From Sphingomonas sp. (GTDB lineage: Bacteria; Pseudomonadota; Alphaproteobacteria; Sphingomonadales; Sphingomonadaceae), in NCBI GenBank assembly GCA_965219075.1, contig CBDCMM010000002.1, positions 643,893-707,892 on the forward strand: a DNA stretch of 64,000 nt. The letters are read 5' to 3'. Below the pieces are notes generated by a model. That model was not told the origin of the DNA. It saw only the letters and a list, made by a program, of their open reading frames with translations, and made no database searches. Of the stretch, positions 4,841 through 41,158 are shown piece by piece. Every line of letters begins with the position of its first letter. The stretch's first letter is position 1. Position numbers and translations under genes: made by a program.

Positions 4841-6163
4841 TTATAATCCTTCGTCCGCCAGCACCTGATCGATCCGCGCGACGGCTCTTGCGAACCGCGG
4901 GTCATCGATCCCGCCATAATGCTTGACGAAACCGGCGTTCGTCATGCCGTCTGCTTGCGTCGTCAGCACGCGCGGCAGGATGCGGTCTTCGGTCGCGCCC
5001 GATAACCGCCGCGCCTCATTCGCGGGATCTGCGCCGCCCGCCGCCGCCTTCGCAATTCTCGACCCCGAACGGTCCGCCGAGAGGTCTACGAACGAAAATC
5101 CTGTCGGATCACCCGGCTGAAAACTGGATTGCTTCGACAGGCTGTCGGCCAGTTCCTTCCATTCGCCCATCGACTCACTCAGATGCATGCCGACACCGAC
5201 CGCAAGCGCGGCGGACAGCGACCAGTGTTTGGGCCAGTCCGCGCGCCCGTGCAGCGTGATCGGCATCACCGGGACCGGGCACGCGGCAACCTGCGCCGCC
5301 GTAACATCGGCAAGATCGCCGACCTGCGGATCGACGACGAACATCGCGAGCGCGATGAACGCCGCGCGGTTGCTTTCCACCGTCGCATTCTCAGCCATGT
5401 TCGCCGGAAACGCTCGCCGCACCTGCACGGCGAGGCTCGGTTCCGGGTCGAGGGTCTGCGCGCGCGCCAATCGGCAATAGGCCCGGATCACGGCCGCCCG
5501 GTCACTTTCTTTCGTCGATCCGGCGATCTGTTCGACGGCGTCGCGTGTTTTCGGCAGATCGACCGTCGCCGCAAAAGTATCGCGACCGACCCGGGTTTCA
5601 CGCACCAGCCGGTCCAGCGGCGGCAGATCGGCCCCGCGCCACCGCAGCACGACGCGCGCCAATTCGAACAGTTTGCGGGTGAGAACCGGCGGCACGCGCA
5701 CCTTGCCGATCGCCAATTCCGTTCGCGGGAAACCCTTGCCGCCGCCCGAAGTCCTGACCGTCAGGTTCAGCCAGCGGTTTAGCGGCAGTTTACGGCTGTA
5801 CGTCATGGTCAGCACGCCGCCGCGCACCGCGACGTCGACGCGGTCGGGCCGGAACCCCCGCGTCGCAAGGACGCTCAACCCGTCAAGCTGTTCGGGACCG
5901 AAGCGGACAGGCGTCGGCACCGCTGCGGACGGAACGGGTGCGAGTTGCGTCACCGCATCGCGCCCTGCGCCCACTTCTTCGGCGGTCGGCGCGACCCGCG
6001 ATCGCGCGGTGGATGATCCGCTCGTCAACAGCACGAACGAAAGCATGACCGCGATCAGCACCGCGACCGCAGCGATCAGGATCCCGTTCCGGCGGGTCAG
6101 GGATATTTTGGGTTGAGCCCGCGTCTGCGCGGAACGGTTCGGCTGCGGGGTTTCCAGCGGCAT
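4841..6163 (-). CDS. Uncharacterised protein with a single N-terminal membrane anchor
   Basis: 440 aa from ATG 6163 (MPLETPQ); one TM helix (ILIAAVAVLIAVMLSFVLL); C-terminal 'DWPKHWSLSAAL...GEWKELADS...GFSFVDLSADRSG' block. Confidence 0.75.
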   Translation of the reverse strand: MPLETPQPNRSAQTRAQPKISLTRRNGILIAAVAVLIAVMLSFVLLTSGSSTARSRVAPTAEEVGAGRDAVTQLAPVPSAAVPTPVRFGPEQLDGLSVLATRGFRPDRVDVAVRGGVLTMTYSRKLPLNRWLNLTVRTSGGGKGFPRTELAIGKVRVPPVLTRKLFELARVVLRWRGADLPPLDRLVRETRVGRDTFAATVDLPKTRDAVEQIAGSTKESDRAAVIRAYCRLARAQTLDPEPSLAVQVRRAFPANMAENATVESNRAAFIALAMFVVDPQVGDLADVTAAQVAACPVPVMPITLHGRADWPKHWSLSAALAVGVGMHLSESMGEWKELADSLSKQSSFQPGDPTGFSFVDLSADRSGSRIAKAAAGGADPANEARRLSGATEDRILPRVLTTQADGMTNAGFVKHYGGIDDPRFARAVARIDQVLADEGL

Positions 6164-6217
6164 CCCCCCGCCATGCCGCACCGCAGTATATTTGGAAAGC
6201 CGGATGTAACGGTCCGG
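5988..6217 (+). repeat. Direct repeat copy 1 (230 bp)
   Basis: Aligns by eye to 34124-34352 with 6 substitutions and a 1-nt indel in a C-run. Confidence 0.97.
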
Positions 6218-6351: not shown

Positions 6352-6624
6352 ATGACAAAAGCTGCCGTTTCACAATGAAACTGAAACCCGATTTGCGCGC
6401 CGAATTCATGGCGGCGGCCGAGGCCAGCCACGGTCCCGCGTCGCAAATGGTGCGTGAATTGAAGCGGAAGTTCGTCCTGCGCCAACGGGACCGGCGCGAT
6501 CATGATGCTTTTCTGCACGCCAAGGTCGCTGCGGCACGGGCAAGAGGAAGGGGAAGGGCGTCCCAATGCGATAGTGGAAGCCGAATTCGCCGCCCGCCGC
6601 ATTCGGGTCAATGACAAGGCGTGA
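6352..6624 (+). pseudogene. Antitoxin (RHH/CopG-like 'stability system' family), frameshifted
   Basis: MTKAAV / FTMKLKPDLRAEFMAAAEASHGPASQMVREL...FLHAKVAAARA / GEGRPNAIVEAEFAARR...; two frame changes (~6369, ~6545). Confidence 0.75.
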
Positions 6625-6835
6625 AGGTCGTACGGACGCCGGAAGCGGAGCAGGACCGCACGGCGTCGGGATTACCTCGAAGCCCTTAATCCCGAAGCCG
6701 CACTTCGCATCGACCGGCTGTTCCGCGATGCCGCCGCGAGCTTGGCCGACTTCCCCCTCCTCGGACAGGAAGGTGAGGTGCCCGGTACGCGCGAATTTAC
6801 GCCGCCCCGGAGCTATCAGCTCGTCTGTGACGTTC
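6621..6835 (+). pseudogene. RelE/ParE-family toxin, frameshifted and truncated
   Basis: GTGA overlap with the antitoxin stop; MKVVRTPEAEQDR / DYLEALNPEAALRIDRLFRDAAASLADFPLLGQEGEVPGTRE...SYQLV, after which similarity is lost. Confidence 0.75.
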
Positions 6836-7013
6836 CCAGGCCCGCTGATATAACCAGGCCGCCGAGGCAATTGCAGCGGCTAGTATCACTCCCACAAATG
6901 CACCCATGCCAAACCTCCCTACATCCGATAAAAGACATTATCATATGTTTGAAATGATGCTAATCTGTTAGAGAACAGCGTTGTGCAATACGGCAATCAT
7001 GATATGTCTGGCC

Positions 7014-8960
7014 TTACACGGCATTGGCCATCATCGTCGCGTTACGGTGTCCGCCGCCCTCAACATAGACGTAATCGACGATGTCCGAGACCGGGACGTA
7101 TTCTGGCACCAACTCCAACAACAGCTCGCGTGCGCTCGCAACGTCACCATGTGCGATCAGCGCTGCCATCTTTTCTAGCTTTGGCTCCAGCTGGTCGAGC
7201 GGCAGATACGGTTCGCTGGCCGTCATGATGCGTGGATGTGCCGTCGGACCGGGATTGTTGCCTATCAACAGCTCTTCGAACATCTTTTCGCCGGGACGCA
7301 TCCCGACCATGACTACCTCGATGTCACCATCAGGATTCGCCTCGTTCTGAATCGACAAGCCCGACAACTCGACCAAGTTGCAGGCAAGGTCATAGATGCG
7401 CACCGGCTCACCCATGTCGAGGACGAAAACCTCGCCACCGCGCGCCATTAAACCGGCCTGCAAGACAAGATGCGCTGCTTCCGGAATTGTCATGAAATAC
7501 CGTGTGACGTCCTGATGCGTAAGCGTGATCGGACCGCCGCGCGCGATCTGATCGCGGAACAATGGCACCACTGATCCGCTCGAGCCTAGCACATTGCCGA
7601 ACCTGACCATGGAGAAGCGTGTCCGGTGATCTTTGGACGATGCCAATCCTTGCAGCACCATTTCACCCAAACGTTTGGAGGCTCCCATGATGTTCGTCGG
7701 CCGTACCGCTTTGTCCGTGCTGACAAGAACGAACCGCTCCACACCGCCACGCAATGCCTCCTGTGCTACAGTAAGCGTTCCAATAACGTTGTTGCGAAGA
7801 CCTTCGAGTGAATTGTGCTCGACCAAGGGAACATGTTTATAGGCAGCAGCATGAAAAACCATGGCGGGCTGCCATGTTTCCATGATCGACCGCATCCGCC
7901 GCCGATCGAGAATGGACGCGAGCAGCGGGACCGCAATCCCGCCTGCTCCGCTATTCAAAGCGTGGTTGATTGAATAAAGGGCGTATTCGCTCGATTCTAC
8001 CAGCAGCAGCTTGGTGGGTTTCATCCCGTAGAGCTGGCGGCATAGTTCGCTGCCGATCGACCCACCCGCTCCGGTAACCATTACCACCCGGTCGCGAACA
8101 CTCTCCTCCAGCGTATTACGGTCATAAGCCACGGGTTCGCGACCCAGAAGGTCATCGATCGTGAGATCCCTAAGATCGCTGGCCTGGACTGTTCCATGCG
8201 CAAGATCCATGAGACCAGGAAGCGTTCGAACGCTCGCTTCATGGCTCTTGAGTGCTGCAATAATAGTGTTGCGACGTGCGCGTGACGCCGATGGCAAAGC
8301 GAGCAGGACATCGGTGATCTGATGCTTATCGATGTGCGACGCGAGCTCCGCCGGATCGAATACCATGAAACCGCGAACTCTGCTTTTGTGTAGCGATCGG
8401 TCATCGTCGAGGAAGCCTACGACTTTAAGCTCCCGACTATCCGCCATTGCGCTCGCCAGCTGCTGCCCGGATGAGCCAGCGCCATAAATGAAAGCGCGGC
8501 CGGTTGCTTTCTCGCGCCGCAAGCGCCGGTAACGTCCGCTCAGCACGAAAGACGCCCCAACGCGGGTCGCGGTTGCGGTTAAGAAAAGTAGCGCCGGCTG
8601 GATTAGACCGATCGTACGAGGAATGCCGTTGATCCCGTAGGCGCTGATCAGCGTCGCGAAAGCGAGCCCATAGAGGCCGCACGCTGTCGCGCTGCGCCCT
8701 AACGTATCCGCCCCGGCGTGGCGCAAAACGATGCGGTACATGCCGGTTGCAGCGAATGCCGGAACAAATAGGAAGAGCGATATCGCTGCGGCGAGCGTCG
8801 GCCGTCCATACATCGATACCCATATGCCCAACCGCAAATAATAGGCGAACCAGATCGTCAGAACGCACAGCAAGACATCGACGCTGACCACAATGAAGCG
8901 CTTCCATGCACGCGGAAGCATGAGAAGAGGGTGCCCCACCGGACGCATTCGATTCTCCAT
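7014..8960 (-). CDS. Membrane-bound UDP-GlcNAc 4,6-dehydratase (CapD/WbpM/PglF family)
   Basis: N-terminal TM helices; TGAGGSIGSEL, FHAAAYKHVPLVE, STDKAVRPTNIMGASKR, RFGNVLGSSGSV, GEKMFEEL. Confidence 0.93.
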   Translation of the reverse strand: MENRMRPVGHPLLMLPRAWKRFIVVSVDVLLCVLTIWFAYYLRLGIWVSMYGRPTLAAAISLFLFVPAFAATGMYRIVLRHAGADTLGRSATACGLYGLAFATLISAYGINGIPRTIGLIQPALLFLTATATRVGASFVLSGRYRRLRREKATGRAFIYGAGSSGQQLASAMADSRELKVVGFLDDDRSLHKSRVRGFMVFDPAELASHIDKHQITDVLLALPSASRARRNTIIAALKSHEASVRTLPGLMDLAHGTVQASDLRDLTIDDLLGREPVAYDRNTLEESVRDRVVMVTGAGGSIGSELCRQLYGMKPTKLLLVESSEYALYSINHALNSGAGGIAVPLLASILDRRRMRSIMETWQPAMVFHAAAYKHVPLVEHNSLEGLRNNVIGTLTVAQEALRGGVERFVLVSTDKAVRPTNIMGASKRLGEMVLQGLASSKDHRTRFSMVRFGNVLGSSGSVVPLFRDQIARGGPITLTHQDVTRYFMTIPEAAHLVLQAGLMARGGEVFVLDMGEPVRIYDLACNLVELSGLSIQNEANPDGDIEVVMVGMRPGEKMFEELLIGNNPGPTAHPRIMTASEPYLPLDQLEPKLEKMAALIAHGDVASARELLLELVPEYVPVSDIVDYVYVEGGGHRNATMMANAV

Positions 8961-9117
8961 AGACGATCTGCACCCGCAATGTGCAGATTGCTTCCTGCCG
9001 TCAGATCCGCGGCGTGCTGCCTATACGCGATTGATCATCGCGAACAAATGCCTTCACGCCGTTACAGTACCGCGTGGATTGAAAGCTTGATCGCCACAGT
9101 TTACCCAGCCCCCTCCA

Positions 9118-10020
9118 ATGCCCGATCGTACAATTTCGCCCACGCCAGAGCGCCCCGCTCTCGATGCTATGCTGCAGGATGGACGAAGTATGCGGGTGGC
9201 GGTAATTCTCCTCAACTGGCGCGCCGCAGACATGACGCTGACCGCCGTGGCGCGCGTGTTCGAACAAACACGGCAACCCGATCACGTCTTCGTCGTGGAG
9301 AATGGAAGTGGCGACAATTCGGAAACCCTGTTGCGCGTCGGCCTTGCCGCCTATGGTAATCGCGTCACGCTGTTCGTGAACCGCGACAATCTCGGCTTCG
9401 GCGGGGGATGCAACACTGCGTTGCGCACTGTTCTCGATGCCGATTATGCATTTTGCTGGTTGCTGAACAATGACGCGGAGCCTGCACCCTCCTGCCTAGC
9501 TCATCTCGTTGCCGCCGCCGCGCGCTTTCCGTCGACCGGTGCGGTTGGCTCGCTGCTAGACAATCCCATACAACCTGGTCACGCGCATTTCGGAAGCTAC
9601 GTTCACCCCCTGACTTTGGTGTCATACCTGCTGCACCGTCCGGACGATATCGACGCGCATCGCTACGCCTGGCTGACCGCAGCCTCGCTGCTGGTGTCGG
9701 TATCGGCGCTGCGTCGGGTGGGCATCTTCGACGAACGCTATTTCATGTACTGGGAAGACGCAGATCTGAGCATGCGACTGCGCAAAGCTGGATACCGTCT
9801 CGTTGCCGAACCACAGGCCCTCGTGACGCACACTGCGGGCACCAGTTCGCAAAGTATAACGATCCGCCGCTACCAGTGGCATCTCGCGTCGCAGCGGCTG
9901 TGGTTGCGTAAGCATCATCCGCTAGGTCGAGCGATGGGACCCGTGTTGCATGCCAAATATCTTCTGAAGGCTCTGATTGATCGCGACCTAGGGCGCTTTC
10001 GTGCGCTGCTGACTAGCTAG
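9118..10020 (+). CDS. Glycosyltransferase family 2 (rhamnosyltransferase-like)
   Basis: VILLNW, VENGS, NLGFGGGCN, LLNNDA, YFMYWEDADLS. Start may instead be 9169 or 9190. Confidence 0.88.
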   Translation: MPDRTISPTPERPALDAMLQDGRSMRVAVILLNWRAADMTLTAVARVFEQTRQPDHVFVVENGSGDNSETLLRVGLAAYGNRVTLFVNRDNLGFGGGCNTALRTVLDADYAFCWLLNNDAEPAPSCLAHLVAAAARFPSTGAVGSLLDNPIQPGHAHFGSYVHPLTLVSYLLHRPDDIDAHRYAWLTAASLLVSVSALRRVGIFDERYFMYWEDADLSMRLRKAGYRLVAEPQALVTHTAGTSSQSITIRRYQWHLASQRLWLRKHHPLGRAMGPVLHAKYLLKALIDRDLGRFRALLTS

Positions 10021-10026
10021 AGCGGA

Positions 10027-11229
10027 TTAGGCCATGCCCCCGGCTCGCCCCGGGATCGTCGCAGCGCGTAACGGCGTGACGCCGACGTTGTAGCGGCACC
10101 CAAGATGCAGCAAGATATAGATAATTAGCCACGTCTGCATCGCTGACAGTATGGCCCCTAACAGATCTGACTCAAACGTAATGAAGGACGTGCAGAACGC
10201 CATAGCCAATGATATTTTCCATCTATTCTTATAAAACAGATGGGTCTCCACAACCCTATCGAAAACTCTACACGCCCTGCCAATTAATAAGAATGCCACA
10301 AACAAGCCAGGGATGCCCGCGTAATAAAGCGGATCGGTTATTATTGAATTGCTATCGTCTAGCCTATCTGACTTCAATACTACCTGTGTATAATACTGCT
10401 TAGACGAGGTCTGTCCTAATATCTTTGCTTCTTGCGCTGCTTTTAGAAAGGGTACTTTGGAAACCAGCGGCGCCAACACGTTGACGTCCCAAGTGCCCGA
10501 ATAAGGCATAAGATGCGCTTCTCGCAACTGAGTAACAATGTTTAGTCCGTCCAGACGCTGAAATATCTCGACTTGGACATAGTCGTGCAGCGAATAATAA
10601 CTTTCCGCCCGCACGGAACTAAAATATGTAAATGAAGCGAAGACTAGAGCCAGCGCGAAAAAAACGCTAACACTATTTGCGACATATCGAACTACCTTGT
10701 CTAGCGGGAAAAATGCCATGACGGTGAGTGCGATGACGACCACTCGGCCGCGTGAATCTGAAATCCCCATGAACGGCAGCGAGGTAAGGACGCTTACAAT
10801 GATCGCCAGCCTGTCCAATCTGCGAACGGGTTTTGCGATCAGGTAGAGAATAAGAACGGGAATCAGTATCAACTCGTAGACGCGGATGATCGCAAGCACC
10901 AACAGCGGCATGGTCCCGTAGATTTCCGCCATTACTTCGGAGCCCTGCCGACGGTTCAGCAAGCCGAAGTCGAGCGAAAGAACGTCATATACGACGCTTA
11001 ATGCAAGGATCACCATCCAGAGCTGCGGACGCGGAACGAGTGACACGTCTAGCTTTGGGAGCGTACCGGGCGTGTTGCTCAGCTTGACGAACGCCCCGAT
11101 TGCGAACGCGATCACCGCAACTAGACCAACGCCTACCGGTGGATGGTAGCCGAATTCGCCTGACGCGCGAAGAATCGGCATGAGTAGAAGATAAATCGCC
11201 GCTTGAGCGAAGACGATCCAAGTAATCAT
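10027..11229 (-). CDS. Polytopic membrane protein, probable Wzy-type polymerase
   Basis: About 10 TM segments, a large loop in the C-terminal half, 'SRGRV' motif, low GC (22/60 at 10201-10260), inside the polysaccharide locus. Confidence 0.55.
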   Translation of the reverse strand: MITWIVFAQAAIYLLLMPILRASGEFGYHPPVGVGLVAVIAFAIGAFVKLSNTPGTLPKLDVSLVPRPQLWMVILALSVVYDVLSLDFGLLNRRQGSEVMAEIYGTMPLLVLAIIRVYELILIPVLILYLIAKPVRRLDRLAIIVSVLTSLPFMGISDSRGRVVVIALTVMAFFPLDKVVRYVANSVSVFFALALVFASFTYFSSVRAESYYSLHDYVQVEIFQRLDGLNIVTQLREAHLMPYSGTWDVNVLAPLVSKVPFLKAAQEAKILGQTSSKQYYTQVVLKSDRLDDSNSIITDPLYYAGIPGLFVAFLLIGRACRVFDRVVETHLFYKNRWKISLAMAFCTSFITFESDLLGAILSAMQTWLIIYILLHLGCRYNVGVTPLRAATIPGRAGGMA

Positions 11230-11311: not shown

Positions 11312-12313
11312 TCAAATCTTCACGCAACTCAGATATATTTCCGCGCAATCTCGATCGTGCGTGATCGAGCGAACCGTTTCCAATGCTTCGTAAGGCACCG
11401 TTTTGCGGCTCTGACTCGCCGCAGGCACCTCACCGCGGACCTGCTCGCGGCTTTGCTGCACGATGAAGCCGCCCAATGGGGTGCCGTGCACACCAACCTC
11501 GCCGAAGCCTTCCTGCTTCGCCAGCAGGCGCAGCGAACCGGGCGTGTGGATCGACAGGTGGCGTGGCACCTCCAGCCCACGCCAAGCCGCTCCGGCCTGT
11601 CGCGCATCGCTTGAGGCTGCGTTTGGCGTGCGCAACACAAGGCGGCCGCCCGGACGGAGCACGCGCCTCGCCTCGGCGAAGAAAGCGCGCGGATCGGGCA
11701 CGTGCTCGATCGTATGGCTCGCGACCACCGCGTCGACCGAGCTAGTTGCAAACAGTCCATCGGTGAATTCGCCGCGGATCGCGTCGAATCCCAATCCGCG
11801 AGCGGATTGGACGCAGGTTTCGTCAAGTTCGCTGCCCAAGACTTCCCATCCAGCCTCGCGCATTAGCGCCAGTGATTGCCCGTTACCGAACCCGACCTCG
11901 ATCACGCGGCCATCCGCGACATAAGGCAGCCAAAATACTCGCGAGAGCGCCATTTCACGAAAATACGGTATGGCATCCAACACACGCGCCAGAAGCGCCG
12001 CTCGCCCCCGCTGCGCCGTAGGATATCCTAAATGGCGATGCATGATGTGTTTCAGCGCCGCACGATACAGTCCCTTTACCCCGGTTGTCGTTAAAACGGG
12101 CGGTGCATGGGTGCTGTACGTTTCGTAGAAACCGCCTAGCTGTTGCGCGGTCAGATCATGCGCCAAATATAGTGCCGCACAAGATGCGTTGATGCAGCGG
12201 TCTAGGTTCCATTGCCCGGCGACCCCATAGACGCGATCTTCGACACCGCGAAACGCCGGCGCCAAGTCACTGTTGCACACCATGCAATGATTCGGTTGAC
12301 GGTAGATCAGCAC
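11312..12313 (-). CDS. Class I SAM-dependent methyltransferase with N-terminal Cys cluster
   Basis: CMVC...CINASC; EVGFGNG; HTIEHVPDP; HLSIHT. Confidence 0.85.
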   Translation of the reverse strand: MLIYRQPNHCMVCNSDLAPAFRGVEDRVYGVAGQWNLDRCINASCAALYLAHDLTAQQLGGFYETYSTHAPPVLTTTGVKGLYRAALKHIMHRHLGYPTAQRGRAALLARVLDAIPYFREMALSRVFWLPYVADGRVIEVGFGNGQSLALMREAGWEVLGSELDETCVQSARGLGFDAIRGEFTDGLFATSSVDAVVASHTIEHVPDPRAFFAEARRVLRPGGRLVLRTPNAASSDARQAGAAWRGLEVPRHLSIHTPGSLRLLAKQEGFGEVGVHGTPLGGFIVQQSREQVRGEVPAASQSRKTVPYEALETVRSITHDRDCAEIYLSCVKI

Positions 12314-13650
12314 TTGCGCCCCCTAGCCAGCCACCATCCCGAGAGCAACACATCACCGCGCGCCAGCCCCAGCTCCTGCGCGTTGAGCCGCTCATCATGA
12401 ACCAGTGTCAGGACCAGCCTGATTGTTGCGGAAAAAGCCAAGGCGATCGGGATACCTACGATGCCTAGGAAATGACCCAGTATTATACTCCCCGTAATAG
12501 ACAGGACCGCTTCGACCATCGGGCTTAGCCACAAGGTGTGCTGGCGCCCCGCACTCATGACGAAAATCGTAAAGCACATTGTCAGTAGACGCAGAACGGT
12601 AGCAGGCAGCAGCATCAGAGAGAACAACTTCACCTCGTCGGCCAGTTGTGGCGTCAGCCATAAGGCGTAAAGGGCAACCGGCGCAGCTACGATCACCAGC
12701 GCGGTCATGAAAATATAGCCTTGGAACAACGTGTTGACGAGAAGAAAAAACCGTCGGCGCAACGGTCGGGGCCGCTCCAACGCCGCGGTCGCGTGGACCG
12801 CAATCGGCCCGGACACTGCCACCATCGCCGCGGAAACAATCCCCAGAAGACTGATAGCGATACTAAACGGCACGATTTGGGCGCGATACCCCACCGCGAC
12901 CACCATCACCGTCGCCGTGGTGGCAAGATACGCTGTCACGTTCCACCACAACACTCCGCGCAGACCGAGTAGCAGGTCGCGGATCAATCCTGTCGGTGCC
13001 GGTTCGCTCTTTGCACGGTGGGCATCTCCCCCCCTTATGCTCGATCGTAGAAGAAGCAAGATTGCGATCGACCATGAACTGACTGCATAGACCGCAAAGA
13101 TCCAAGGAAGCGGCCGACCGCTTCCCGCTATCCAGATCGCAGCCACACCAGCGAGTTGCGCTAATCCCGGCCATGATTTGGCGACATTGTCCGGACGAAA
13201 GTCGCGCTGGGCGGCTGCAGGAGCGATCGCCAACCCCACCGCCAGCAATCCCAGTGTGTACATCAGCAGCGCGTAAAGACCAAAACGCACTGTTGTCGGA
13301 TCTGAGACGATATGCCCCAGCCGGACGTACAGCTCGATGCCCACGATCGTTAGCGCGATATGTGCCGCGGTGACGATGATAACGAAGCGGCCGTATCCCG
13401 CTATTGCACGATCGGCACCATATCTAGCTACTGCCAGCGCGAGCTGCGATGCGCCAACCGAGCGCATGGATTGCGGCAGGATCAGCACCAGCGGAAGCGA
13501 GGCGAGAACGACCGAGTATATGTCAAACTGGGGACGAGTCAGTGCGCGCGCCAGAGCAGCCGGGATCAGCACTGTCGAAAAGATCAGCATTCCGCTCGAC
13601 ACGACGCTACCAATTGAGTTGCTGAGCAGGCTGCGAGGACGCGTGGACAT
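12307..13650 (-). CDS. Probable Wzx-type flippase
   Basis: About 12 TM segments; 'ALARALTRPQFDIYSVVLA' resembles the Wzx N-terminus; MATE/MOP-like length; locus context. Confidence 0.65.
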   Translation of the reverse strand: MSTRPRSLLSNSIGSVVSSGMLIFSTVLIPAALARALTRPQFDIYSVVLASLPLVLILPQSMRSVGASQLALAVARYGADRAIAGYGRFVIIVTAAHIALTIVGIELYVRLGHIVSDPTTVRFGLYALLMYTLGLLAVGLAIAPAAAQRDFRPDNVAKSWPGLAQLAGVAAIWIAGSGRPLPWIFAVYAVSSWSIAILLLLRSSIRGGDAHRAKSEPAPTGLIRDLLLGLRGVLWWNVTAYLATTATVMVVAVGYRAQIVPFSIAISLLGIVSAAMVAVSGPIAVHATAALERPRPLRRRFFLLVNTLFQGYIFMTALVIVAAPVALYALWLTPQLADEVKLFSLMLLPATVLRLLTMCFTIFVMSAGRQHTLWLSPMVEAVLSITGSIILGHFLGIVGIPIALAFSATIRLVLTLVHDERLNAQELGLARGDVLLSGWWLARGRKC

Positions 13651-13803
13651 CACGCATCTCTAGCGCGTCTCGCAACCCGCGCCAGTGGCTTGGTCGCCGA
13701 CGCACGATCATGGCGCAGTTGACTTTATGGAGACAATGGCGACTAGAAGAGGCTTGCCAATCGCGAGAATTCCGCCGTTCCCGCCTGTTCGACAAGAGGC
13801 TAC

Positions 13804-30477: not shown

Positions 30478-31041
30478 ATGACCAACCCCATCCATCTTAT
30501 CCATCCCCGCCGCCACGGCGACGCACGCGGCTGGTTCACCGAAACCTACAATCGCGAGACGTTCGTCGCGCATGGGATTGACGTCGCGTTCGTTCAGGAC
30601 AACCACTCGCTTTCCGCGCCCGCTTTCATATTGCGCGGGCTGCCTTTTCAAACTCCACCCCGCGTGCAGGATAAGCTCGTCCGCTGCATCCGCGGACGGA
30701 TTTTCGACGTCGCGGTAGATGTGCGGAACGGATCGCCGACCTATGGCCAGTGGGTCGGTGCAGAGCTGTCGGCCGAAAACGGTGACCAGCTCTTCATCCC
30801 CGTCGGCTTTGCGCACGGGTTTTTGACGCTCGAGCCAAATTGCGAAGTCGTGTACAAATGCTCGGATACCTACGCGCCCGAGGCGGACGGCGGGATCGCG
30901 TGGGACAGCGTCGGGATCGACTGGCCGCTGCCGACGGGGAACATGCCTGAGCTGTCCGACAAGGACCGGTACCAACCCTCCCTCGCTGACTTCGGTAGCC
31001 CGTTCGCCTATGATGGGCACCCGCTCCAACCGCTCGCCTGA
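30478..31041 (+). CDS. rmlC: dTDP-4-dehydrorhamnose 3,5-epimerase; catalytic His replaced by Pro
   Basis: [31 protein letters not shown]; RGLH reads RGLP (CCT at 30643-30645). Confidence 0.9.
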
Positions 31042-31052
31042 AGGACAATCCC

Positions 31053-32104
31053 ATGCGCATCTTCGTCACCGGCGGGGCCGGGTTCATCGGCTCGGCGCTC
31101 GTGCGTCACCTCATTCGCGACACCGGGCATGAAGTCCTGAACTTCGACAAACTGACCTATGCGGGCAACTCGTCGACAGTAGCCGAGGTGGCGGGGTCGA
31201 ACCGTTACCGCTTCGTCCAGGGCGACATCTGCGATGCCGACGCGGTGCGCGCCGCGATCGTGGGGTTCCGGCCCCACATCATCACCCACCTGGCCGCGGA
31301 AAGTCACGTCGATCGCTCGATCGACGGGCCTGGCGCGTTCATCGAGACCAACGTGGTCGGCACCTACGTCATGCTCTCGGAGGCACGCGCCTATTGGCAG
31401 GGGCTGGACGAAACCGCGCGCGCTGCGTTCCGCTTCCACCATATCTCGACCGACGAGGTATACGGCTCGCTCGGCGATACCGGGCTGTTCACCGAGGAGA
31501 CGCCCTACGACCCGCGCTCGCCTTATTCGGCGTCGAAGGCGGGCAGCGACCATCTCGTCAGCGCCTGGGGGCACACCTACGGTCTGCCGATCCTCATCAC
31601 CAACTGCTCGAACAATTACGGGCCGTATCACTTTCCCGAGAAGCTGATCCCATTGGTGATCGCCAAGGCGCTCGATGGCGAACCCCTTCCCGTCTACGGC
31701 GCGGGCGATCAGGTGCGCGACTGGCTCTACGTCGAGGATCACGTGAAGGCCCTGCGTACCGTCTTCGAAAAGGTAGGCCCGGGCGCACCTACAATGTCGG
31801 CGGGCATAACGAGAAGCAGAACGTAGAAGTCGTGCGCACGCTCTGCGCAATCCTCGACCGGCTTTCTCCAAACGAGGACGGCGAGAGCGATGCCGGGCAG
31901 ATTACCTCGGTCGCCGATCGCCCGGGACACGACAAGCGCTATGCGATCGACGCGACGCGGATCGGCGAGGAACTCGGCTGGCAGCCGGAGGAGACGTTCG
32001 AGACCGGGATCGAAAAGACGGTGCGCTGGTATCTCGGCCATCAGGACTGGTGGCGCCCGCTGGCGGCGGGCAAGGCGGCCGAACGGCGCGGCGTGGCCTC
32101 ATGA
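31053..32104 (+). pseudogene. rmlB: dTDP-glucose 4,6-dehydratase, -1 frameshift near 31773
   Basis: TGGAGFIGS...HISTDEVYG...YSASK in one frame; GRTYNVGG...[12 protein letters not shown] in another. One extra base at GAA AAG G-T AGG restores [10 protein letters not shown]. Confidence 0.88.
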
Positions 32105-32140
32105 TGACGCGTATAACTGTCGACATGTCGGCGCGTTGTT

Positions 32141-33028
32141 ATGCGTGACATCCTCGTCACCGGCGCGGGCGGGCAGCTCGGCACCGAGCTGCAGCGCGTC
32201 CAGTGGCCCGAGAACGTGCGGGTCGTCGCGAGCGACCAAATCGATCTCGACCTGACCGACACCGCGGCGATCGCCGCCAAGGTGGCGGAACGCGAATGGG
32301 CCGCGGTCATCAACGGCGCGGCCTATACCGCGGTCGATAAGGCCGAGAGCGACCTTGTTACCGCTTGGGCGGTGAACGCAATGGCACCCGCGGCGTTCGG
32401 CAAAGCCGGTGCGGAAGCGGGCATCCCGCTGGTCCAGGTTTCGACCGACTATGTCTTCGGCGGTGACAAGCATGGTACGTGGGAGATCGACGATCCGGTC
32501 AACCCGCTCGGCGTCTACGGCGCATCAAAGCTGGGCGGCGAGCTCGCGGTGCGCACCTCGGGCGCGAAGGCTGTGATCGTGCGCACCGCTTGGGTCGTGT
32601 CGGCGCATGGCAACAATATCGTGAAGACGATGCTTCGGGTGGGCGCGACCAGCCCGACCTTGCGCGTCGTCGCGGACCAGCATGGCTCGCCGACCGGTGC
32701 CCCGGATCTGGCAGACGCCCTCCGCGCGATCGTGCTGCGGCTGATCGAGGATACCGACGCGCCCACCGGTACCTTCCATTTCTCGAACGCAGGGGAGACG
32801 AACTGGGCGGACTTCGCGCGTGAGATCTTCCGCCAGTCCTGCCTTCGCGATGGTGCGGTCGCGAAAGTCGAAGGGATCACCACCGCGGACTATCCCACCC
32901 CCGCACGCCGACCCACCAATTCGCTGCTGAGCCATCGCGCGATCGGCGCGGCCTATGGCATCGCCCCCCGCGCTTGGGAACCGGCGCTCGGCGACATTCT
33001 CGACGAACTGATCGGAACACCGAAATGA
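32141..33028 (+). CDS. rmlD: dTDP-4-dehydrorhamnose reductase
   Basis: [42 protein letters not shown]. Confidence 0.93.
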
Positions 33029-33894
33029 AAGGCATCATTCTCGCCGGCGGGTCGGGCACCCGGCTCCATCCGGCGACGCTCGCGGTCAACAAGCAGCTGC
33101 TCCCGGTCTACGACAAGCCAATGGTCTACTATCCGCTCAGCGTGCTGATGCTGGCGGGAATCCGCGAGGTGCTGATCATCTCCTCGTCCGAATATCTCGG
33201 CAATTACCAGCGATTGTTTGGCGATGGTTCGGCGTTCGGTTTATCGATCAGTTACGCCGAGCAGCCGCGCCCCGAGGGACTTGCACAGGCGTTCACGATC
33301 GGTGCCGACTTCATCGGCGACGATGATGTCGCGCTGGTGCTGGGCGACAACATCTTCTTCGGTGCAGGCCTGCCCGAACTGCTGGCAAGCGCGGTCGACC
33401 GGACGAACGGTGCGACGGTCTTCGCCTATCAGGTCGAGGATCCCGAACGGTATGGCGTGGTCGAGCTGGGTGATGCCGGCGTGGCGTTGAGCCTCGAAGA
33501 GAAGCCCGCGAGCCCCAAATCCAACCATGCGGTGACTGGGCTGTATTTCTACGACAATCGCGTCGTAGACATGGCGCGCAATCTGAAGCCTTCGCCACGC
33601 GGCGAGCTCGAGATCACCGACCTCAACCGTCTCTACATGGAGGCGGGCGACCTCTTCGTCGAACAGATGGGCCGCGGCTACGCCTGGCTCGACACCGGCA
33701 CCCACGACAGCCTGCTCGAGGCGAGCGAGTTCGTCAGTACGCTCCAGCACCGCCAGGGCATCCAGATCGCCTGCCTGGAGGAAATCGCCTTCGAGACGGG
33801 CTTAATCGATGCCGACCAGGCACGCGCATGTGGCGAGATGTTCAAGAAGACCGCCTACGGACGCGCCATTCTACGCGCGGTGGACGGGCGCTAG
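33025..33894 (+). CDS. rmlA: Glucose-1-phosphate thymidylyltransferase
   Basis: [42 protein letters not shown]. Confidence 0.96.
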
Positions 33895-34123
33895 ATCCTC
33901 ACCCCCACCGGCGTTTCACCGTGCTTCCTGAGCACGTCGTCGAACGCCTCGGCCATCAACGCCTGAAGGCTCCTGCCCTGCCTCCTCCCCAACATGTGCA
34001 TTGCGAGGCTCATCTCGGGCGTGAAGAAGCCCGCGATCTGCTTGCGGCCCTCGCGGCTCGCGGCTCGCAGGCTTCGTCGGCTCGGGCGCAGGGGTCGGGG
34101 TCGCCTCAGGTTCGTTGGCGGGC
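33891..34123 (-). pseudogene. 3' fragment of a plasmid-type ribbon-helix-helix (ParG/CopG-like) gene
   Basis: Removing one 7-bp unit at 34051-34068 gives PEPTKPASREGRKQIAGFFTPEMSLAMHMLGRRQGRSLQALMAEAFDDVLRKHGE, a beta-strand/helix/helix pattern; its native 5' end is missing. Confidence 0.65.
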
Positions 34124-34299
34124 GGCGCGGCCCGCGATCGCGCGGTGGATGATCCGCTCGTCAACAGCACGAACGAAAGCATGACCGCGATAAGCACCGC
34201 GACCGCAGCGATCAGGATCCCGTTCCGGCGGGTCAGGGATGTTTTGGGTTGAGCCCGCGTCTGCGCGGAAAGGTCCGGCTGCGGGGTTTCCAGCGGCAT
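33916..34299 (-). CDS. Chimeric ORF: duplicated N-terminus and TM of the 4841-6163 gene fused to RHH-derived sequence
   Basis: The first ~58 codons match the 6163 gene; then a Pro-rich linker and an out-of-frame tail. Confidence 0.45.
   Translation of the reverse strand: MPLETPQPDLSAQTRAQPKTSLTRRNGILIAAVAVLIAVMLSFVLLTSGSSTARSRAAPPANEPEATPTPAPEPTKPASREPRGPQADRGLLHARDEPRNAHVGEEAGQEPSGVDGRGVRRRAQEAR
34051..34068 (+). repeat. 7-bp tandem repeat (TCGCGGC x2 plus TCGC)
   Basis: Read directly: tcgcggc tcgcggc tcgc. Confidence 0.9.
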
Positions 34300-34352
34300 C
34301 CCCCGCCATGCCGCACCGCAGTATATTTGGAAAGCCGGATGTAACGATCCGG
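34124..34352 (+). repeat. Direct repeat copy 2 (229 bp)
   Basis: Matches 5988-6217. Confidence 0.97.
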
Positions 34353-34559
34353 CGCATGGCAGAGCCGGTCAACCGCTCCGGGCGCCGGATGGTCCCTGTG
34401 GACATTCACTCACGCGCATGCGATCCCGCTTGATATCGCCGCTACGTGTCGGCGCTTACAGTCGCTGGTCTCTGCTCGCGTTCAGCAGCAAAGGCGTCGT
34501 TGAGTGGATCGAGACAGTCCGCTTTCGGACAGACCGCCCTGATACGTGGCAGTTTCCAA

Positions 34560-35108
34560 TCAGCGAACAACGGCGTTGCGTTGGCTAAGCCGCGAGCAAT
34601 CGATCATTCGATCCGTCACCTCGTCCACTGTGCAACTCACTTCTCCAACCAACCAGCTTCGGAGCATTGCAAGTTGTGCCGCTGCGATCCCGGCTGCCCT
34701 GATGGCCAATGCGACGTTGGCCTCGTCGGCCCGCCCGATCTGGATAAGGACCATCTCCGCCAAGCGGCGTTCAATGATCCGAGCGGTGGGTGAACTGAGA
34801 ATTATCCGTCCTGTCGATCGTCTTCTCCAAAGATGACTAATCATGCTCTTGACGTAACATCTGGCCGCTCGACCCGAAGCAGCGGTGGAAAGCGCAAGAA
34901 GAACGGGCTCCATCGCAGAAATCAGGACATCGCTCTTGCCCCGAAAATGCTCGTAAAACGTTGCTCTGCCAACGTCGGCCTCATGTACGAGGTCGGCGAT
35001 GCGGATTGTGTCGTAGCGGCGTTCGAGCGCGAGCTTTACGAACGCTGCCAAAATTGCCGCACGTGTGCCTAATTTACTCTGGCTATCTGATACCGGTTGG
35101 TCCTGCAT
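34560..35108 (-). CDS. TetR/AcrR-family transcriptional regulator
   Basis: N-terminal HTH 'IRIADLVHEADVGRATFYEHFRGK'. Confidence 0.88.
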   Translation of the reverse strand: MQDQPVSDSQSKLGTRAAILAAFVKLALERRYDTIRIADLVHEADVGRATFYEHFRGKSDVLISAMEPVLLALSTAASGRAARCYVKSMISHLWRRRSTGRIILSSPTARIIERRLAEMVLIQIGRADEANVALAIRAAGIAAAQLAMLRSWLVGEVSCTVDEVTDRMIDCSRLSQRNAVVR

Positions 35109-35278
35109 ATCCTATCCCTAGGGTATGACCCCCCTATATGCGACGCCGACAGCGGCATTCCGTCCGGACATTTTGCGGGTAGTGTCCGCCGAGGCCGTTC
35201 TGGGCAGCGTTTGCGCTCGCCAACAAGTTTGGTGTGGGCCAGATTGGATTCACCAACATCAATGCGGAGGACTGGACC

Positions 35279-35635
35279 TTGGATCATCGATCGGTCGCAA
35301 TCATACCCTGCGGAAACCTTGACGCCAGCGAAGCCTTTTACAGCAAGCTCGGCTTCGACGTGATCAGCGATTATGGACTTTACCGGATTTTGGCGGATGG
35401 TCGAGGTTGGCATCTGCACCTGACCCATGCGCCCGGTTGGCCAAAAAATATCGAGGCCAATCCGTTTGGTTTGTATCTGTATGTCGATGACGTCGACGCA
35501 GTTGCCGCGCGAGTACACGATATGATTATTGAAAAAGGGGCACCGCACGAGAAGCCTTGGGGAACGTACGAATTCTCTGTAAGCGATCCAAGCGGGCTGC
35601 TCGTGCGCGTCGGCCGCAGTATCGACGACGGATAA
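35279..35635 (+). CDS. VOC/glyoxalase-family protein
   Basis: SEAFYSKLGF, LYLYVDDVD, KPWGTYEFSVSDPSG; GGAGG 8 nt before TTG 35279. Confidence 0.85.
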   Translation: MDHRSVAIIPCGNLDASEAFYSKLGFDVISDYGLYRILADGRGWHLHLTHAPGWPKNIEANPFGLYLYVDDVDAVAARVHDMIIEKGAPHEKPWGTYEFSVSDPSGLLVRVGRSIDDG

Positions 35636-40666: not shown

Positions 40667-41158
40667 CGGCAGGGCCAGCGCGTCGGGATCGGTCAGCGCC
40701 GTCACCCGCCGCGCCGCGCGCCGCGCGAAGCCGAGCGTCGATCGTTTGCGCGCATGCGCCGAAAGGGGAACGCTATGCGCCTGGCGGACGATTTCCGCGT
40801 CATAGCGATCGGCGACGATGATCCCGGTCCGCTCGGGAAGGAACGCCCCCCCCGCCAGCGGCGATAGGTCGAATCCGGCGGGCAACGCCCAGAAGAAACG
40901 GTCGCAATGCGCGAGATAGTCGGGCCATTTGCCGTCCCCCATCAGGTCGGCGCGCGATACCTTGATCTCGACGATAACGATCCCGCCGCGCGGATCGATC
41001 GCCATCAGGTCGGCGCGACGCCCGCCGTCGAGCGGCACCTCCGCGATCGCCGTCAGGTCGTGACGCATCAACATGCGCATAACGCCGCGCGCCACATCCG
41101 CCGCGCATAAGGCCGAATCAGGAGCGTCGACACAGCTTTCAGGCGGGGTATCAAGCAT
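40658..41158 (-). CDS. mmcB: MmcB-family DNA repair endonuclease
   Basis: PD-(D/E)XK 'RRADLMAID...IVEIKVSRAD...KWPDYLAHCDRFFW'; upstream LexA box. Confidence 0.85.
   Translation of the reverse strand: MLDTPPESCVDAPDSALCAADVARGVMRMLMRHDLTAIAEVPLDGGRRADLMAIDPRGGIVIVEIKVSRADLMGDGKWPDYLAHCDRFFWALPAGFDLSPLAGGAFLPERTGIIVADRYDAEIVRQAHSVPLSAHARKRSTLGFARRAARRVTALTDPDALALPSG

Follow-up and report, generated by a model that had tools for sequence, protein, structure and literature searches.

The question raised by this locus is whether a minus-strand open reading frame of 127 amino acids, at 34299..33916 (-) of the window (the whole 64-kb stretch of Sphingomonas DNA that was analysed), belongs to a genetic switch or is what a recombination event left behind. 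In this ORF the duplicated 5' end of a membrane-anchor gene is fused to the linker of a ribbon-helix-helix (RHH) gene, and the frame is broken by a 7-bp tandem repeat. A sequence-only reading had proposed that slipped-strand loss of one repeat unit could create a new membrane-tethered DNA-binding protein, with plain decay as its fallback. Based on our analysis, the locus is very probably the broken remnant of a partition gene at the joint of a plasmid-derived island, a scar with plain decay and no switch.

The ORF and its lesions comprise the following features.

33916..34299, minus strand: standing chimeric ORF, with a membrane anchor, a Pro-rich linker and an out-of-frame tail
34050..34068, no strand assigned: tandem duplication of 7 bp (AGCCGCG in gene orientation), derived, which shifts the frame just ahead of the RHH beta-strand
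33895..34124, minus strand: pseudogene remnant of a plasmid ParA-partner RHH gene (PF20605), without its first ~13 codons
33899..33902, minus strand: 2-bp deletion in the last codon, GGGGAATGA to GGGG--TGA, which turns E* into VRI* and leaves the native TGA (33899-33901 on the plus strand) out of frame

The ORF opens at an ATG at 34299. A basic N-terminus of 27 residues is followed by a strongly hydrophobic stretch at residues 28-46 (mean Kyte-Doolittle 3.18), and past this TM segment come a Pro/Ala/Glu-rich part and an Arg/Gly-rich tail of unrecognizable type. On the plus strand, TCGCGGC is found at 34051-34057 and 34058-64 and is followed by TCGC up to 34068; the repeat scan gave period 7 over 34050-34068, which is 19 nt or 2.7 units. 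Removal of one unit in silico gives a 402-nt ORF of 133 amino acids with the C-terminus ...GETPVGVRI, and the TAG of this restored ORF overlaps the TAG of rmlA within CTAG at 33891-33894. The repeat coordinates, the 402-nt frame and the overlapping stops had all been reported from the sequence alone, and they were correct on recomputation. The RHH domain claimed for the C-terminus was also recovered: once the 7 nt are taken out, and only then, residues 80-129 of the product match PF20605 (Antitox_RHH) over its full length (profile 1-50/50) with an E-value of 1.6e-20 and 73.5 bits, against a Pfam gathering score of 27.2.

The 64-kb window contains two period-7 runs of 18 nt or longer, where 0.02 would be expected from dinucleotide shuffles, and the run at the repeat is not a product of chance. 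The other run (40710-40727, CGCGCCG x2.6) lies inside an intact 172-aa MmcB-like gene, so short GC-rich periodic runs can occur without breaking a frame. Both outgroup contigs, L007 and L005, have one 7-bp unit each, and the extra unit in the window is therefore derived. MAFFT placed the indel elsewhere in the linker; we chose the 7-bp tandem duplication as the parsimonious reading because its removal gives the family-wide motif KPASREGRKQ exactly. Programmed frameshifting and transcriptional slippage at the repeat were considered and rejected, as the repeat has neither a slippery X XXY YYZ heptamer nor a homopolymer. The single Rfam match, RT-15, was sub-threshold (17.8 bits versus 82) and was dismissed.

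With a 77-aa query covering the linker and RHH domain of the restored protein, a search of 5.8 billion proteins found 1161 homologues. The best 120 of these are 78-105 amino acids long and have a Pro/Ala linker and no TM segment. They start with MSRKPSFANLR or a close variant (exact in 86), their junction reads ...(K/G)PASR(E/Q)GRKQIAGFF..., and in all 120 the C-terminus lies one residue past G130. None of the 5.8 billion proteins was more than 94% identical to the query, so the restored chimera is absent from the record. An exact-product look-up likewise found no matching record for the 127-aa ORF or for the RmlA of the window.

The remnant departs from this family along its whole length. The MSRKPSFANLR tail is replaced by the membrane anchor, with homology beginning at RHH nucleotide 41, and parA is missing from directly upstream, unlike in the homologues. 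Because of the +7 there is no uninterrupted frame, and the RHH frame has no start codon upstream of M94. The 2-bp deletion, a lesion that the sequence-only reading missed, is derived relative to L007, L010 and L005, and the VRI tail is its product. In addition, the restored RHH domain has A102G at a position that is Ala in 119 of the 120 homologues. There is a 40-aa internal ORF (33891..34013) that is ATG-initiated and spans both helices, and one could suppose that it still yields a working mini-RHH. However, it is without the beta-strand (GRKQIAGFFTPEM), the element that carries DNA recognition in RHH proteins, as established for ParG (PMC7308502), and we found no RBS or promoter evidence for it, making a working mini-RHH extremely unlikely.

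The RHH gene can be traced to plasmids. The joint with a plasmid partition locus had been predicted, together with a comparison of the restored RHH to ParA-adjacent plasmid proteins, and in that comparison the homologues directly follow parA on Sphingomonas plasmids. On complete plasmids of S. paucimobilis and S. taxi, the order is repA-HTH-parA-RHH followed by nucleotide-sugar and polysaccharide genes. Metagenome contigs L007-L010 (homologue P0003) have integrase-RPA(repA)-ParA-RHH followed by convergent rmlA-rmlD-rmlB-rmlC. It is this gene position that suggests a partition role for PF20605 proteins; the restored product gave no match to the ParG profile of Pfam at E<=1, and no PDB chain was matched in a sequence search at E<=10.

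Positions 6041-9263 of L007 are collinear with window positions 34124-30904, 3.2 kb at 88% DNA identity, and the plasmid homology starts at window position 34124, which is RHH nucleotide 41 with respect to L007. The abutment of the RHH gene and rmlA was also considered as a second joint. We rejected this, since L007-L010 abut likewise with 4 nt between the RHH and rmlA stop codons, and the tight spacing is therefore ancestral to the plasmid.

On its other side, the joint meets a duplicated piece of a chromosomal gene, for which the following features are needed.

34111..34130, minus strand: recombination joint, GCGCCG(A/C)CCGCC, in Ala-Pro codons ~58-62 of the membrane gene and ~14-18 of the RHH gene, in the same frame
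34111..34352, minus strand: right repeat copy, comprising the initial ~63 codons of the membrane-protein gene, TM residues 28-46 among them, and 53 bp of sequence upstream of its ATG
5975..6217, minus strand: left repeat copy, which supplies the 5' end of an intact gene, 4841..6164 (-), for the 440-aa membrane protein
34353..34440, minus strand: flank of the right (chimeric) copy, which is the original upstream sequence of the membrane-protein gene and aligns with the empty site in L012
6218..34110, no strand assigned: inserted polysaccharide-biosynthesis island, ~27.9 kb, absent in the sister species L012

The two direct repeats, 5975-6217 and 34111-34352, are 243 bp long, 96-98% identical and ~28.1 kb apart from start to start (28,135-28,136 nt). 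The intact 440-aa gene adjoins rpoZ; its family is conserved among sphingomonads and gave no Pfam match. The likeness of the repeat copies ends inside GCGCCG(A/C)CCGCC, and the breakpoints are thus observed directly. Translated in the same frame, this stretch gives Ala-Pro-Thr-Ala in the membrane gene, Ala-Pro-Pro-Ala in the S. taxi RHH and Ala-Pro-Ala in the L007 RHH. The fusion is in frame because the crossover fell at a short identity (~13 nt) between two GC-rich linker-coding stretches, and with such in-frame microhomology, selection for a fusion protein need not be invoked.

The empty site was located by a protein search and then a contig look-up. Relatives of the membrane protein from a first genome-contig scan were 46% identical, had different neighbours and were of no help for this purpose. 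L012, a sister species from the same metagenome whose membrane protein is 77% identical, has the order phaC-hydrolase-membrane gene-rpoZ-PLD and no island. Its upstream DNA matches 34353-34440 of the window and gives no alignment with the left-copy flank (6218 onward), so it is the right copy that retains the native upstream DNA, and the gene body stayed with the left one. A TetR regulator and a glyoxalase-family gene (34560-35635) lie between phaC and the membrane gene in the window; L012 has a single alpha/beta-hydrolase gene (8475-9704) in their place, a second difference between the two at the same spot. On the sequence evidence, the region is the right joint of a 28.1-kb plasmid-derived polysaccharide island with 243-bp repeats at its flanks; the recombination joint with a plasmid partition locus that the sequence-only reading had envisaged is supported by the parA-adjacent homologues on plasmids, the L007 collinearity and the empty site in L012.

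Two parts of the island bear on its origin.

6375..6860, plus strand: decayed parDE toxin-antitoxin module of plasmid type at the island's left end, with a partial antitoxin and a frameshifted ParE
30478..33894, plus strand: rmlC-rmlB-rmlD-rmlA block, convergent with the RHH remnant, an arrangement also found on the related plasmid contigs

The parDE antitoxin is 80% identical to its counterpart on the Novosphingobium plasmid pP6W2, over residues 1-51 only, and PF05016 is recognized in the ParE remnant (E 1.5e-7) only when it is read across the frameshift. The other island genes are CapD-like, GT2/GT4/GT1 glycosyltransferases, a methyltransferase, DegT, an acetyltransferase, heparinase-like, Asn-synthase-like, WecC-like, WecB-like, Bac_transf and Gmd, in addition to rmlCBDA. 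Pfam gave no match for two big island ORFs, 10027-11229 (-) and 12307-13653 (-), of 400 and 448 amino acids, which are possible Wzy- or Wzx-type membrane components of the cluster. Using tblastn against the 64-kb window, we found no homologue of the ParA, RPA or integrase of L007, and there is no functional integrase or other mobility gene among the island ORFs. A megablast of the island against plasmids gave no close plasmid, the sole match being a 73% identical aminotransferase from Ralstonia.

We compared the locus with a related strain represented by L011/L013 (a 454-kb contig), which is 98.65% identical over 20.5 kb with 272 substitutions, and is thus 1.35% diverged. This strain also has the 2-unit tract, the 2-bp deletion and a -1 frameshift in rmlB, and these lesions are older than the split of strains 1.35% apart. 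Its only indels relative to the window are in the repeat copy, at 34299 and 34352-3. In runs X1 and X2, Logan contigs cover 33690-34152 and 33706-34103 and show 0 differences from the window, and the right repeat copy of X1 carries left-copy SNPs, which makes it a third haplotype. The 2-unit allele is thus present in the window, L011, X1 and X2, three haplotypes as seen in assembled contigs, where rare 1-unit variants are not visible.

The related contigs are long-read metagenome assemblies, which are indel-prone, and the lesions could in principle be sequencing or assembly errors. However, the Logan contigs come from two separate public runs and cover rmlA, the RHH remnant and the joint without a difference, and the independent 454-kb contig of the other strain has the same indels, so the lesions are almost certainly not artefacts.

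The same comparison bears on the slipped-strand gate that had been proposed, a contingency locus that would turn on a membrane-anchored RHH regulator when one 7-bp unit is lost. With one unit fewer, a complete RHH domain does come into frame with the anchor, a tandem duplication could contract in principle, and the native upstream DNA is still present. Yet the tract is only 2.7 units long, and the allele is the same in the window, L011, X1 and X2 despite the 1.35% divergence and the differing repeat-copy haplotypes. No restored chimera is on record (nothing above 94% identity to the 77-aa query among the 5.8 billion proteins), and the restored form would be without the conserved N-tail and would have an altered C-end and A102G. 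We consider such a switch very unlikely.

The predicted topology of the anchor and the gene content of the window point the same way. There are 4 Lys/Arg ahead of the TM segment and 2 behind it, a bias shared by 87/98 family members, and by the positive-inside rule the anchor is predicted to be N-in/C-out, which would place the RHH domain of the restored chimera on the periplasmic side. With no ParA in the window, the basic N-tail gone and the predicted compartment wrong, the restored protein would be a poor DNA-binding protein. The membrane-tethered DNA-binding protein of the sequence-only reading is not supported, given this combination of a lost N-tail, an altered C-end, A102G, no parA in the window and a predicted periplasmic RHH.

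That reading had also described a duplicated promoter region together with the TM-encoding 5' end. The duplication stands, at 243 bp and 96-98% identity; the promoter part is unproven, as the repeat includes 53 bp upstream of the ATG in which none is detectable. A scan for promoter and terminator consensus sequences at the locus found none, and no sigma-70 consensus was found in the ~50 bp upstream of the ATG of the membrane gene. This stretch (34300-34352 / 6165-6217; L012 9948-10000) seems better conserved between species than the whole repeat, ~74%, and may be a 5'-UTR or a non-canonical promoter element.

Since native upstream DNA is retained at the right copy, the 127-aa ORF may be transcribed; a look-up for RNA evidence gave no identifiable RNA run. 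The resulting protein would presumably consist of an anchor and a nonsense tail and play no part in DNA binding. It could be asked whether this product is, as it stands, a new functional small membrane protein or an anchor decoy, given that both strains have kept an intact start codon and TM segment, with the native upstream DNA joined on. But in L011 the out-of-frame tail reaches another stop, the anchor parts of the two strains are 5 amino acids apart, against just 2 nt between the functional left copies, and no such gene product is on record. A functional product is therefore quite unlikely.

Several observations indicate that decay extends beyond the repeat. The position of R122S in the L011 strain is Arg in 120/120 homologues. 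In the RHH part, the window and the L011 strain differ by 2 nonsynonymous and 3 synonymous substitutions, too few to prove neutrality. Independent substitutions at invariant or near-invariant positions in each strain can be taken as evidence for relaxed constraint. Relative to L007 and L010, rmlB (31053-32104) has a 1-bp deletion at ~31769/31770 that splits the gene into two frames; the same rmlB sequence is found in the X1 and X2 Logan contigs and in L011, so this is a real frameshift and no sequencing error. The L011 counterpart of rmlD (window 32141-33028) is cut short by a nonsense codon at 232 and differs from the window copy at 12 more amino acids. These lesions suggest that the rml operon is decaying in this lineage. 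Plain decay, which had been offered as a fallback, agrees with the broken frame, the lost stop, A102G, the missing parA and the decaying neighbours.

We infer the following course of events for the plasmid-derived scar. A Sphingomonas plasmid of the repA-parA-RHH type, carrying a polysaccharide cluster whose rmlADBC genes are convergent with the RHH gene, would have joined the chromosome by recombination at the 5' end of the conserved membrane-protein gene beside rpoZ, at the ~13-nt Ala-Pro microhomology, with a second joint 53 bp upstream of the ATG of the membrane gene. The repA and parA genes and the first 13 RHH codons would have been lost or never captured, and the outcome would be a 243-bp target duplication around the ~28 kb island. 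Left with neither ParA nor a plasmid to partition, the RHH remnant would then have decayed through the 7-bp duplication (+1 frame), the loss of 2 bp in the last codon and A102G, presumably in an order like this one. The parDE module at the opposite island end would have decayed as well, and so would rmlB.

The repeat copies form a mosaic of shared and private variants, with 2 nt of difference between strains in the left copies and 15 in the right ones. Several states of the L011 right copy also occur in the outgroup, and the X1 right copy equals the left copy. This pattern is consistent with gene conversion between the repeats. The unequal depths of the X1/X2 contigs (left ~31, right ~18) were considered as a sign of excision and rejected; two co-occurring strains with common unitigs fit better. 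It is very improbable that the 7-bp duplication contracts at low frequency in living populations and that the 133-aa anchor-RHH fusion, driven by the native upstream DNA, is then produced and takes on a new role, for example as a membrane-tethered regulator if the anchor inserts in the opposite direction. In a weaker variant, beside which the conversion-like mosaic can be cited, RecA-mediated exchange between the 243-bp repeats would delete or convert the island and act as a population-level polysaccharide switch.

Read as a scar, the locus is a cleanly resolved capture of a plasmid-borne, rml-containing polysaccharide cluster by a Sphingomonas chromosome, in which both joints, the 243-bp target duplication, the empty site and the stepwise decay of useless maintenance genes (RHH, parDE) can be seen. 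The case also shows that gene fusions can find in-frame microhomology in GC-rich Ala-Pro linker codons. In annotation, a label of pseudogene or junction remnant suits the 127-aa ORF better than one of membrane protein or regulator. The value of the case is mainly natural history: it is an ordinary pseudogene at an island edge and opens no long-standing question.

Simple-sequence contingency loci include the 7-bp repeats upstream of the Haemophilus influenzae hmw genes and the tetranucleotide tracts in lic genes, and the known examples have many units that vary among isolates and within cultures. The locus described here is like them in that reading frame or expression depends on how many copies of a short tandem unit are present. 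It is unlike them in having 2.7 units that are invariant in three haplotypes (assembled contigs) and an 'on' product that is already damaged.

The closest relatives are the ParA-adjacent RHH genes of Sphingomonas plasmids (S. taxi STP1; S. paucimobilis FDAARGOS_908 unnamed2, MOB-suite rep_cluster_1131), whose RHH domains are 80-94% identical to the restored one. They share its Pro/Ala-rich linker, the ...KPASREGRKQIAGFF junction once one 7-bp unit is out, and the polysaccharide/rml genes directly downstream. In contrast to these genes, the copy here has lost ~13 codons and parA, is fused to an anchor, has the +7 frame and the -2 stop loss, and has a near-invariant Ala replaced. The intact relatives also resemble the ParF/ParG system (type Ib, plasmid TP228) in being small RHH proteins with a flexible basic N-tail, encoded just after a ParA-type ATPase. 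ParG's N-terminal tail has an arginine-finger-like motif and stimulates ParF (PMC7308502). Unlike this general organization, sequence relationship to ParG of TP228 is not detectable for the PF20605 remnant (Pfam E<=1, PDB E<=10).

As a whole, the locus is like other integrated plasmid segments and islands in having flanking direct repeats, an empty site and plasmid-maintenance remnants (RHH, parDE) at both ends. It differs from typical integrated islands in that there is no integrase and no short att-type core, the repeat instead being 243 bp of the target gene, and in that one of its joints is a microhomology inside two coding regions.
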